NCBI RefSeq assembly: GCF_003704095.1
Contig: NW_020846537.1
Coordinates: forward strand, 62,001 to 126,000
From: Pocillopora damicornis
Lineage: Eukaryota
Direction: 5' to 3'
Length of the DNA stretch: 64,000 nucleotides
Shown: piece after piece, positions 1,632 to 6,101 of the stretch
How positions within the stretch are numbered: the stretch's first letter is position 1
Layout of the letters: every line of letters starts with the position of its first letter
Position numbers and translations under genes: made by a program
The notes under the pieces: model-generated
What the model saw: the letters and a program-made list of their open reading frames with translations, nothing else
What the model was told of the DNA's origin: nothing
Databases searched by the model: none

Positions 1632-4600
1632 ATGGATGATTCAGAAGTCAGAAATGAAGGTTTTTATGTTCATAAATTCATAGAATAGTATCAGTTTTAC
1701 TCATAATTATCCCTTCCAAGTCGTTAATTATGTTTATGAAATATGGCATTAGGAGTTATAATTATTGCGGCTCTTTTTAAGTCACATTTTTTTTTCAACT
1801 GATGTTTACTTGTTTTGTAGCCACCTCTAGTGATATAGCATTTGAACAGGCTCCTGTCACTGAAATCCACATACAGTCAATATGTGGTAAAGTGGGCACA
1901 GAATGGAGAGATCTGGGTACAGTCTTACGGCTTGAATCAGCGTTGATGAATATTATTGAGGCTGATCTCAGCGAATGCCGTGAAAGGGCACGGAAAGTGC
2001 TTCAAAAGTGGAAACAAAAAAACGGAAATAGAGCAACAGTTGGAATCCTTATAAATGCTCTTAACGAGATAAATAGGAAAGACGTCGTCGAAAAACTGCT
2101 CGGTATGTAATCTCCTCTTGTGAAGAAAATCTCTCAATACTAGGTTTATCTAGATCTATTTACTTTCCTAACGAAAAAACTGAACACCTATGTAGGAAAA
2201 GATCTTCGAACGAAAGTCTTGGTGGCCTTGTCAAGGAGGCTTCATTTTAGATGAAGATCGCGCTGCGAACAGTTTTTATTGTGCCTTCCTTCTAGGATGG
2301 CCTGAGGCGCTATGTAGTGCTGTGTCGTGTAAGTTCATAAACCTTCCCCACGCCCTTCAAGGTTTTCAAAATGGTTTCACGAGACACTCATAAAGTCTCT
2401 TGTGACTCGTCCTGGTTCTGCTCCGACACTAGCCATCATTGAACGAATCTGATCGGGTTTCTTCGGATTCATTTTTGGTTTTGTCGGGTTTAGTTCGATG
2501 TTTGCTAAGGGTCTCATCTCTGCATTTTGACATTGGTATCGACTTGAAGGTAAAAGATATGTCTTCAAACGTTCTCACGTGTGCATTTTAATCTGAACAC
2601 TTGAAAACATATCCTTTGAAGAAGAATGTAAATTGTAAGGAGAAAAAATTGAAAAGAAACCACAACAAAAGGACAACAATAAGTTGACGCGGCCAGGGCT
2701 CAAAGCTTACGCTCAAACTTTCGGACTCGAAAGGAGTAAGTACATCCATCGTGCTAGGGAAGAATGGCGTGCGAATGTTAGCGAAGTTTTGTATATCAAT
2801 ACATTTGACGCACATTAAATATATATACCTATTCGATTAATTTACCTGCCCTCGGCCTGTAAATTTACAGTGTACAAACTCTATTCTATCCAAATCCTCC
2901 TTTTGTCAAAATTTTGGCATTGACAAGAGCTTTTCATTAACACCTTTACATTTTGTACCACGTTGCTCTTTTTACTGCAATACTCTACAACTGTACAACG
3001 GTAGGCACATGCAGTGCACCAAGAAAGTGGTATCTAATTAAACGTAGCCTTAAGTTAAAGAAAACCAAAGTTAAAGCAAATGGAATATTTGCTTGCAGAA
3101 GGTAATAGGTTGTGAGGTCCATCGACGTGTCTGCGCACAGTCTCTCAGGTTGTAGCATTGTCGTGGAAGCTTAAAGCCCTTAAACTCGAGTTAGATCTCC
3201 TCAAATAATTGAAGAAATTGAACTAGTCCATCACTGCAATTGCATATGCCAACATTTGAGTAATTGTTAGGGCAATGTTAACGGCTTGTAAAGCTAGCAA
3301 CCTGACTACCGTGTACATCTGCAAATCTTTTGCCTCTTTGCATCTAGGAACGGGAAATGTGAAGAAAAGGTTAAGCTGCGCTCGGGCACTAAGTGGGAAT
3401 TTACAGAGAAAACTGGAAAATTAATATTTCGGGAAGGTTCTTTGTGTAAATATCCAAGGATAGAGACAAATTTATCGCGGCTCGAAATTTTTGCGAAGTT
3501 AAAGTACTACAGCAGGGGCTTAGAGCCTGAATGTAGCGAAAACAATAGGACAATAAAATGCCAGTGCAACCAGAAATCGTATTTTAACCCAGTATTAAGT
3601 TACCTTCCTGAAAACTTTTTACTTTATTATTTAAGAAAGAGCTTACTGTAACCTTGTTACCTTCGGTTAACATTTGCAAATTTCCTTCCACTATCTAACT
3701 AGATACAGAAAAAGTGGAGGCCGGATTGAGCTCCGTTCGAATTGCAAGTGGAAATTTACGAAAGGACGTTAAACTTTTAAAGGAAGAAGTACAAAACGTG
3801 CAACGGATTCATGAGGAAACACGGAAAGAACTCAAAGAATTAAAAGAAATCGTGTACAAAATACAAACAGCAACGGGAGATGAAGAGCGGCAGCACATGG
3901 AAACTAGGGTGCAACGCAGAGAGACAACAATTGAACTGCTTGACGAGCAGGATCCAATGCAAAGATCGACTCGATTGGAAGAAATTTGCGGCAGGATTGA
4001 CCAGGATCTGCGTGTTGTACAGGACAGCATCAAAATAGTCTCTGAAAACCAAAACGCGGTGGTTGGAATGTCATTCGAAGCCGGCAGGAATGCATCAGAT
4101 GAACCAAATGAGAGCCAACAGGGGGAAACCACATCGGCAGATCCAATCCAGAGAGACACAATACGGAGGGATTGGCAGAACCAAAGATACAATGAACCTA
4201 TTATACGACCTTTGCTTGACGGTAGGCTTATTCTACACAAATTATTATCAACCAAATTTGTAATGTTCTGTCCGAGAGACGTCGATGGAGTGAGATAAAC
4301 GAAAACGAGTTAATTCGAATTAAAAACTTTCGTTTTAATTTCAAAACATATCTCTCAACATTCCTATGCGCATGTTCAGTGTGCACGAAATACCGAAATG
4401 CAGCATTCTCTGAACACCCATCTTAAGATTTCAACTGAAATTGGACGATAAATGAATCACTTAGTGATACTGTAGTTCGCTGATCCTTTTTTAGGTTCAT
4501 TTAAAATTTTTTAGCACGAAGTTCAATAGATTATATGTCAATTATTTATGCGATCGTTGATTGGGTTTAAAACCTCGTCATTTTCGTCTTCATCTTTGGG

Positions 4601-6101
4601 TATAAAATAAGTTACCTTCGTTTTTTCTCTAAAGTGTTCGATAGAGATAACTGTGAACGTTATTTTCTTACAGATGTTGATCGAATACCGGCCTAATTTT
4701 CCTTGTTTCGAAAACATAACTGAATTTATCACCGTTAGAAGTGATGATTTCTATGTCGTCATAGTGACTGAGCCTACTGGCATCGCGGTTTTACTCACGA
4801 AAGTTTTACATTTTAATTTTTCAATTAATACCGAGGTCAAACTCAACTTTTGTTAGGAGAATGTTTAAGTTATGCAATCTCTGCAACACGTTTGCTAAAC
4901 GATTTGCAGGATTTCCAGGATATGAAAAGGAACTCAACGAAGTGGAAGGAGAAAGAGATTCACTGAAAACCAAATCTGGTAAATCAGACCAAACGAACCA
5001 AAGACAACTGGAGAAGAAAAGAAAGTTAAAAACAAATAATAAACAAGTTAAAGAGGAAAGAAACGATACCATTGAACCAAACAAAACAATGGTGGAGCAG
5101 ATTCAAAAGCTTGAAGCCGAGAAAAAGGAGCTCGAAATGACGTTAAATGGTCAAACCGATCTGAAGACTGAAAATAAAGAGCTGTCGACTCAAATAGAAA
5201 GGCTGACAAAAAAAGCAAACAACTCTGAGTTTGAGTGCAAGCGGCTACAAGAGGAGCTCAAGACGTACATAAATTACCAAAGTCGTAAGTACACGAAAGA
5301 ACTTTTTGAAAGATAGTATTGACTTTCCATCTTTGGCCAATCTGTTTTAGTATAAAGTGGTACAGCCTTGCGCTCTATTTACGTATCTGTCATATTAGCT
5401 TAGGTTTTTCTTTAACCCCTTCTTTCCCGTTAAGCACATTTTTCGCTGATGTTGAATTATATACATATGGGGAGGGGAGGCAAGATATATATTTTTTTTC
5501 TTTTAATGTTATCTATCTTACTTTCGTTTCCACTTAGGCGTTTTCTTACCAGCTGGAAAGGAATTTGCCGGCATATGCACTGGTGTCATCTGCTTCCTAA
5601 AACAAAGATTGAGAGATGCACCCTGCGCTGAACTGATTGCATCCAGATCCTCCGATGGCCCTGGAGATGGGGCTGACGTATTAAACCATAAGATGGGCAC
5701 CGTCAGTGGGACAGAAGGAAAGAAAAATTCGTGGTGGTCTATTGATCTGGGCTCAAGCCATCGGCTTGTGATCACACACTACGCTTTAAGGCACGGCAAA
5801 AGAGAAAAAGAGTCACTGCTAACCCAGTGGCAGCTGAAGGGATCAAATGATGGGAAGCACTGGGAAAACATTGAAACTATTCACGACAAGAAAGAACCAC
5901 AGTTCAAAGACCCTACTCCATTTTGTACAGGCAAATGGTCTGTCAAAGGGGAAATAGGGCCTTTTCGTTTTTTTCGAATTTTCCAGACAGGTGTTAATTC
6001 CTCTGGCAAATATGGAATATACCTATCTGGAATTGAGTTCTACGGAGTACTTCTGAACATGTGTGAGCTAGGAGCTATGGAGGCTTTATCCTATAAAGTT
6101 T
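1632..6101 (+). CDS. Gene A: Death domain - coiled coil - HECTD1-type SUN-like/galactose-binding domain protein (about 590 aa; stop codon lies in the N gap)
   Basis: Exons 1632-1659 (MDDSEVRNE), 1821-2102 (DD: W-RDLG..L.L...ERA.KVL.KW...NG..ATV..L..AL..I.R.DVVEKL), 3703-4221 (coiled coil), 4919-5284 (coiled coil; alternative in-frame acceptor 4910), 5538 to gap at 6102 (SWWSIDLG..HYALRHG..WQLKGSNDGKHW..FRFFRIFQTG.NSSG.YGIYLSGIEFYG). All GT-AG, all phase 1, open frame; same layout as paralogs B, C and D. Confidence 0.85.
3348..3487 (+). pseudogene. Relic (pseudo)exon: truncated, gene-B-type copy of coiled-coil exon 3 inside intron 2 of gene A
   Basis: Acceptor ctctttgcatctag (AG ends 3347), preceded by about 250 bp alignable to B intron 2 (12680-12975). 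Phase-1 translation GTGNVKKRLSCARALSGNLQRKLEN* resembles D TEKVEAGLHCARVQSSKLRREVD. The next part (gggaaggttctt...atccaa) matches B gggaaggatcta...atccaa. Stop at 3422-3424. Confidence 0.75.

Follow-up and report, generated by a model that had tools for sequence, protein, structure and literature searches.

How a gene comes to carry a death domain (DD) foreign to the rest of its body, and from which paralogs its two parts were drawn, is the question raised by gene A of the coral Pocillopora damicornis. The gene begins at position 1632 of a 64,000-nucleotide stretch (the window), which covers positions 62,001 to 126,000 of the forward strand of contig NW_020846537.1 (assembly GCF_003704095.1). 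The contig that holds the window is denoted C3172 in the coordinates below, the window being C3172:62001-126000. Genes A, B and C (+) and D (-) are arranged in tandem in this window, followed by two CARD-bearing relatives, and A-D have a common plan of a short exon 1, a DD exon, two coiled-coil-looking exons and a last exon of F5/8-type-C-like character. An earlier reading of the sequence (the original prediction) described A as a B-like 5' half joined to a C-like 3' half near position 3488, and as module shuffling caught in progress. Our analysis makes it highly probable that A is a spliced chimera, with its promoter side, DD exon and a dead exon stub drawn from one paralog lineage and its exons 3-5 and 3' flank from a copy of C, the former lineage being represented by copies termed U1 and U2 on the same contig.

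The affiliation of A was found to change between its second and third exons. Nucleotide identity in exon 2 was 74.5% to B and 66.3% to C, and the order was reversed in exon 3 (64.7% and 83.9%), exon 4 (72.6% and 92.1%) and exon 5 (75.6% and 93.4%). Among 525 informative sites, those uniting A with B and those uniting A with C stood at 58:35 in exon 2 and at 41:391 in exons 3-5 (Fisher p 2e-26), and the maximum of a MaxChi-type scan fell on the exon 2/3 boundary, a value reached by 0 of 1000 permutations. The nearest paralog of A thus flips at this boundary. A recount of the DD core returned the values originally given by hand (A/C 34/74, A/B 40/74), and the identity of roughly 90% claimed between A and C in the C-terminal domain was measured at 92% (172/187 amino acids).

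That A is a recombinant with a C-type 3' part was borne out, but B proved not to be the closest kin of its 5' half. This position is held by four DD copies lying 32-57 kb upstream of the window, namely U1a, U1b and U1c of gene U1 (C3172 8098-5036, -), which comprises exon 1, three tandem DD exons and the start of exon 3 before a run of Ns, and U2, a partial copy at C3172 29.7-30.8 kb. Identity of A to U1, B and C was 84%, 67% and 64% in the upstream region, 87%, 80% and 78% in intron 1, and 84%, 80% and 68% in the sequence before the stub; exon 2 was 79-86% identical to the U copies at the nucleotide level, and the first 300 bp of intron 2 were 86-90% identical to the U copies, 73% to B and 63% to C. 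The claimed B-likeness of exon 1, intron 1 and the ends of intron 2 consequently holds only inside the window, where B is nearest, and intron 1 has no power to separate B from C (79.5 vs 78.3%). Two insertions of dispersed repeats also occupy matching positions in A and the U copies, neither being found in B or C; one of these (1219-1483), which has matches on other contigs, occupies the same place in U1 and occurs only in A and U1 within the searched part of the contig.

Phylogenetic analysis of the DD at the DNA level grouped A with U1a-c and U2 (93/97), with B as their sister (98/97), and rejected both A+B (approximately unbiased test, p-AU 0.024) and A+C (p-AU 0.0002). In the DD protein tree, A was placed with U1a-c, U2, B and Y (97/96) and C with Stylophora-type DDs (94/97), A+C being rejected at p-AU 1e-125, and the DD of A is therefore foreign relative to that of C, as had been proposed. 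The partial first DD of P0058, near-identical D orthologs, the exon-5 fragments at C3172 20.9 and 22.8-23.5 kb and a partial exon 3 at 57.9 kb were left out of the trees. On these comparisons, B is placed as sister of the A+U group rather than as the closest relative of the 5' half of A.

Each of the three tandem DD exons of U1 was copied with flanking intron, and two DDs of this kind also occur in protein P0058 of P. meandrina; given the N gaps, the triple DD of U1 may be an artefact of haplotype stacking. The upstream region of B is 79% identical to that of C, and P0006, which clusters with Stylophora P0038, shares the exon 5 of B (98/97), is 49% identical to B in exon 4 and carries a C-type DD with an A/C-type exon 3. 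B may be a second chimera.

The seam itself can be read to the base, and the predicted breakpoint near 3488 was confirmed as a sharp junction at 3487/3488. Sequence of B type occupies 3088-3369 of A (68% to B 12671-12997), and 3424-3487 aligned to B exon 3 with a local score of 108, reached by none of 5000 shuffles (mean 47, maximum 94), which agrees with the claim of a relic, degenerate exon 3 ahead of the switch. From 3488, corresponding to C 23905, the sequence is of C type, at 82.9% over 70 bp and then 85% over 3570-6101. The break thus falls inside exon 3 of the donor and inside intron 2 of the recipient, and because the two sides meet 355 bp out of register, the conserved intron-2 end occurs twice within intron 2 of A (2103-3702), U-type first and C-type second. 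The stub (3348-3487) retains about 25 open codons, followed by a stop at 3422-3424 and a frameshift, and is open in U1 where A has these lesions; it is 78% identical to U1 and 54% to the exon 3 region of A itself. A transcript-derived protein, P0059, has a U-type DD followed by a segment resembling the stub, so the stub is likely the native partner of that DD. A motif of about five bases is common to B and C near the points corresponding to the seam, and microhomology there is a guess only. One allele carries 24 extra bases at position 3550 which resemble C intron 2, and the reference copy of A therefore appears to carry a later small deletion.

The join was then sought in sequencing runs independent of the assembly, using eight runs from eight studies (four DNA, four RNA) chosen out of 24 listed as holders of the stretch. 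Contigs of all four DNA runs bridged 3487/3488 with no differences (3355-4281 twice, 3355-3743 and 3402-4178), and a fifth contig, from an RNA library, spanned 2494-3717 with alleles of its own. In all four RNA runs the DD exon was joined to the C-type exon 3 through a 1600-base GT-AG intron, skipping the stub; one RNA contig covered exons 1-4 of A and another exons 4-5. All four introns of A are in phase 1 in the gene model, with which the RNA joints agree, and skipping the stub for this reason restores the frame. Gene A is a real, expressed recombinant and not an assembly error. Of the extent originally given (1632..5284), the start codon was kept, whilst the gene continues past 5284 to at least 6101, where exon 5 runs into an N gap before a stop codon is seen.

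Several transcripts depart from this model. In one RNA run an exon-4 acceptor nine bases earlier was used. At position 5015, RNA contigs of three of the four studies leave exon 4 into sequence like the 3' flank of C (26826-26847), which may reflect an unusual splice, a paralog that is truncated or an allele with a deletion. In one RNA contig the end of the DD exon (2102) continues into 194 bases that were not found in the window or in the assembly.

As regards direction, the exon-5 tree united A, C and the Stylophora protein P0002 (100/98) and rejected A+B (p-AU 2e-05). P0002 pairs a C-type DD (65% to C, 47% to A) with an A/C tail, and C-type DDs also occur in P0006 and in the middle of Stylophora P0011. 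Because of the pairing in P0002, C keeps the older combination of DD and tail and A is the derived gene, a polarity taken from the single outgroup genus Stylophora. In the same tree A and C were sisters to the exclusion of Stylophora (85/77), with the alternative of C+P0002 not rejected (p-AU 0.233); a split of A and C later than the Stylophora split is thus likely rather than shown. Non-coding distances were 0.11-0.19 from the 5' half to the U copies and 0.10-0.20 from the 3' half to C, and synonymous distances (dS) were 0.08-0.24 and 0.11-0.21, respectively, against 0.56 between the DDs of A and C. On the lower side of the age, the stub has decayed and RNA alleles about 1% apart all carry the join. 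The split of Pocillopora and Stylophora has been placed near 56 Mya (million years ago), with living Pocillopora under 3 Myr (million years) old (PMC5519588). We infer that the fusion occurred in the Pocillopora lineage and is older than the sampled alleles.

Searches in other species were too narrow to show absence, and the fusion is hence not dated by species range: no full-length A-type protein was found in narrow searches (9/283 and 2/213 candidates), and 0 of 786 candidates passed an exon 3 search among longer proteins, which is weak evidence. An A-type exon-3 open reading frame (P0042, 89%) is present on metagenome contigs without context.

The two halves most likely became joined when one out-of-register deletion, or one unequal exchange, took place within the tandem array, an event that may have consumed the immediate donors, if these did not diverge later, and that would predate the allelic variation sampled. 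The 3' flank of A tracks that of C at 6244-6320 and 6951-8089 (77-86%). A number of observations nonetheless weigh against so simple an account. The DD protein tree does not reject A+B (p-AU 0.126), the rejection being confined to the DNA tree (0.024). The available copies do not provide the exact donors: U1 lies some 55 kb from A in the opposite orientation and breaks off in an N gap after 26 codons of exon 3, and U2 is without its 5' part. The 3' flank is a mosaic, with matches to the B-C spacer over 6569-6986 and a large part of 8096-9717. The run contigs are all short, none spanning the whole of gene A. Divergence from the surviving copies dates the donors and limits the age of the fusion from above only. 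Finally, A/C identity climbs toward the 3' end, intron 4 standing at 91% and the intron-2 end plus intron 3 at 84% (p 0.008); a single event therefore does not explain everything, and later conversion is hinted at.

The dating of donors rather than of the fusion leaves some room for a very recent event, still segregating, in which two long-diverged donors were joined and destroyed. The choice of runs also favours carriers, the join being present in 8/8 runs that were all picked as holders, and four of the 24 listed runs contain next to none of the stretch, although these may be other organisms. We nevertheless regard so recent a fusion as improbable: near-identity to the donors was not found, the stub has acquired stops and a frameshift where U1 is open, all RNA alleles carry the join despite their divergence, and it is present in DNA runs of two different organism labels. 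For the same reasons, together with halves that lie 10-20% from their closest surviving copies, the description of the recombination as caught in progress is not supported.

The rise in A/C identity, from 82-87% to 89-96% after about 5090 (5088-6101 vs 25573-26583), would also suit an old gene of U/B type in which conversion from C replaced the 3' part or kept it similar, with the stub as the leftover of the overwritten exon. Letters of both A and C occur in exon 5 of two DNA contigs, at roughly doubled depth, and domain-wise conversion has been described in zebrafish NLR-B30.2 genes (10.1101/027151). A homology-guided event would however be in register, and here there is a shift of 355 bp and a doubled intron end, the C-type stretch spans 2.6 kb plus flank, and the mixed contigs may represent assembler merging of two copies that are 93% alike. 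Neither these contigs nor the 10 of 25 listed RNA variants that equal the C letter were accepted as proof of ongoing conversion, as contig merging or ancestral alleles also fit. Conversion as the whole explanation is distinctly unlikely; later conversion can add to the chimera formed by fusion but hardly replaces it.

It is very unlikely that A is simply the sister gene of C, internally duplicated over a short stretch and with a DD made foreign-looking by positive selection. The exon does evolve fast, with point estimates of dN/dS (the ratio of non-synonymous to synonymous substitution rates) of 1.0-3.3 and wide intervals for A and the U copies, and values above 1 not significant for most pairs (dS and dN intervals overlapping for U1a, U1b and U1c, touching for U2). 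Against this, the non-coding DNA switches too, upstream of the gene as in the first 300 bp of intron 2, the DD is far closer in dS to the U copies than to C, the two repeat insertions are common to A and the U copies only, and the stub resembles U1 rather than the exon 3 region of A. Mis-assembly of two paralogs or haplotypes, for which the many scaffold N gaps (two flanking gene A) and the short-read nature of the evidence might speak, is scarcely credible given the seam-crossing contigs of four DNA studies and one RNA library and the splice from DD to exon 3 in four RNA studies.

For the chimera, the product can be described in part. Exon 2 matched PF00531 at 53.8 bits (cut-off 22.6), and the DD sequence matched the DDs of RIPK1, FADD, PIDD and THOC1. 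Exon 5 reached 33.6 bits against PF22633 (cut-off 27.8) and 25.5 against PF00754, under the cut-off of 28.2, with an Atlas score of 0.98; exon 5 alone gave no match by sequence to solved structures. A first structure model (10 alignment rows, predicted local distance difference test score, pLDDT, 42) was discarded. The domain model retained (23 rows, pLDDT 86) matched CBM32 and F-type lectin domains in fold (Z 14-15.6, root mean square deviation, rmsd, 2.2-3.0), and DOC, muskelin and SUN domains at Z about 13. The same fold is seen in the CBM32/F-type lectin/DOC-discoidin relatives (7nsn, 3cqo, APC10, muskelin), with 7nsn_B at Z 15.6 and rmsd 2.9 over 149 residues and 3cqo_A at Z 15.1 and rmsd 2.6 over 136 residues, but these beta-sandwich relatives are at most 20% identical to the A domain, and the fold is also that of peptide- and protein-binding domains and of the non-lectin DOC, muskelin, SUN2 and IFT25. 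As modelled, the C-terminal domain of A is a galactose-binding-like beta-sandwich, a putative ligand-binding domain and at most a candidate for the sensor named in the original prediction.

Coiled coils are likely in exons 3 and 4, judging from their sequence. No hydrophobic leader is visible, and the product would for this reason be a cytosolic adaptor, with a C-type beta-sandwich as putative ligand domain, coiled coils and a DD that may have other binding partners; the swap would thus change promoter and DD partners and keep the tail. With dN/dS in exon 5 at 0.27 for A/C (0.25-0.27 for A/C and A/D) and 0.62 for A/B, the tail appears as the conserved part of A and the DD as its fast part. As a death-fold protein, the product may have an immune or cell-death role, and the gene cluster is probably immune-related.

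The model of C is identical in reading to P0001, whose source name is Pocillopora damicornis 'hecd-1-like', and the remaining named protein matches are from Pocillopora and Stylophora. HECTD1 is the source name of P0001 and P0011, but a scan of A exons 2-5 found no HECT family and the precomputed domains of P0001 are PF00531, PF00754 and PF22633 only; identity as a HECTD1 E3 ligase was rejected for lack of a HECT domain.

Coordinates of gene A and its paralogs are collected in Table 1.

Table 1. Features of gene A and paralogs B-D (window coordinates).
Feature	Position	Strand	Basis
Upstream and 5' untranslated region of A, U-type	1219..1631	+	83.9% to U1, 66.9% to B, 63.6% to C
A coding exon 1, phase 1 (9 codons from the start codon)	1632..1659	+	Model; spliced to exon 2 in 3/4 RNA runs
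A exon 2, DD of U/B lineage, phase 1-1	1821..2102	+	PF00531; 70% (amino acids) to U1a, 49% to B, 46% to C; trees
Dispersed repeat in intron 2 of A	2277..2600	.	Also present in U1b, U1c and U2; no match found in B or C
First intron-2 3' end, U-type, intact-looking AG acceptor	3128..3347	+	83.6% to U1, 80.0% to B, 68.0% to C
Dead exon-3 stub from the 5' donor	3348..3487	+	Homology to start of U1 exon 3; skipped by RNA in 4/4 runs
Junction of donor exon 3 and C-type intron 2, out of register	3487..3488	+	Alignment; bridged by 4/4 DNA runs
Second intron-2 3' end, C-type, acceptor in use	3488..3702	+	82.2% to C, 69.6% to B, 67.2% to U1
A exon 3, C-type, likely coiled coil and linker	3703..4221	+	83.9% (nucleotides) to C; tree; spliced
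A exon 4, C-type, likely coiled coil	4919..5284	+	92.1% (nucleotides) to C; spliced
A exon 5, F5/8-type-C / galactose-binding-like, extended A/C tail	5538..6101	+	PF22633; structure model; fold matches
Paralog B, five exons	11918..16523	+	Placed as sister to lineage of A's 5' half; possibly itself a chimera
Paralog C	23091..26609	+	Closest relative of A's 3' half; has the ancestral DD/tail pairing
Paralog D, slowly evolving, tree outgroup	29481..32844	-	94% (amino acids) to Stylophora P0018

The cluster extends upstream of the window. Ten DD matches and 11 exon-5 matches (8 whole or nearly so) were counted on the contig, and a span of 110 kb holds no fewer than 10 exons with a DD and 8 complete F5/8-like ones, plus CARD versions. 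In A (6059-6101) and C (26541-26609), as in Stylophora P0002, the reading frame runs on past the point at which B and D stop. Exon 4 has lost its start, which includes a CxxC motif, in A (4860-4918) and C (25330-25403), where a remnant sits in intron 3; B, D and P0002 keep it. The two CARD genes (36754-41524 and 44346-48353) have a last exon of the same kind as A-D, and one of them also matches exon 3 of A and D, suggesting an older DD/CARD exchange on the same scaffold. A further paralog at C3172 47.5-51.3 kb (L005:9541-10000 and L006) has exons 3-5, with no DD exon found upstream, and turnover seems to have been extensive, to judge by the fragments and inverted neighbouring copies at C3172 16-37 kb and 57-62 kb. 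Elsewhere in the window, an open frame at 59546-59758 shows a RING-like Cys/His pattern by eye, repeats both inverted and direct being clustered after it (60010-61341), and an open frame at 49065-49286 (-) ends in what we take to be a CDGSH-like iron-sulfur motif.

A broader proposal, possible but doubtful, is that this pocilloporid cluster is an undescribed family of cytosolic receptors or adaptors which repeatedly swaps phase-1 N-terminal cassettes, its DD being under diversifying selection and the swaps rewiring a conserved tail. If so, A would be a swap with its scar intact, B a second and the triple DD of U1 a third kind. The term module shuffling does not fit A, in which domain architecture is unchanged: A-D all have a DD exon and homologous exons 3-5, and one DD was exchanged for a paralogous one.

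Literature searches, with subscription journals and supplements of genome papers largely outside their scope, retrieved no paper on this coral family or event. The process is known in other animals, and A is a further well-documented case, offering a base-resolved, expressed and outgroup-polarised example of gene birth in a coral death-fold cluster. As a natural pair, 92% alike in the C-terminal domain and 46% in the DD, A and C would suit a test of DD swap against signalling partners.

Four described systems resemble A in part. Chimeric genes arising from tandem duplication in Drosophila yakuba (PMC5460883) likewise unite the 5' part and regulatory side of one gene with the 3' part of another and are expressed, but the parents of A are paralogs of one family, its domain order is kept and it looks fixed rather than segregating. 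In lancelets, phase 1-1 exon shuffling has been reported (PMC4284660), and with all introns in phase 1, neither swaps nor the tripled DD exon of U1 disturb the reading frame here; the break in A, however, cuts donor exon 3 and is no clean intron-to-intron exchange, with splicing hiding the debris. The NLR-B30.2 genes of zebrafish (10.1101/027151) are likewise a clustered family with death-fold domains at the N-terminus and, at the C-terminus, a beta-sandwich as candidate recognition domain, and exchange has run differently in different parts of the gene, whereas the A family lacks NACHT and LRR, and its C-terminal domain is conserved and its DD fast where the fish C-terminal domain diversifies. 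For lophotrochozoan RIG-I-like receptors, grafting of N-terminal domains has been reported with pseudo-exonization as a mechanism (PMC8998645), and there too death-fold N-termini are discordant in history from C-terminal domains; those receptors exchange one type of domain for another (CARD, DD, DED, Ig), on a helicase whose role is known, whereas in A a paralogous DD was swapped onto an uncharacterised tail, with the seam visible to the base.

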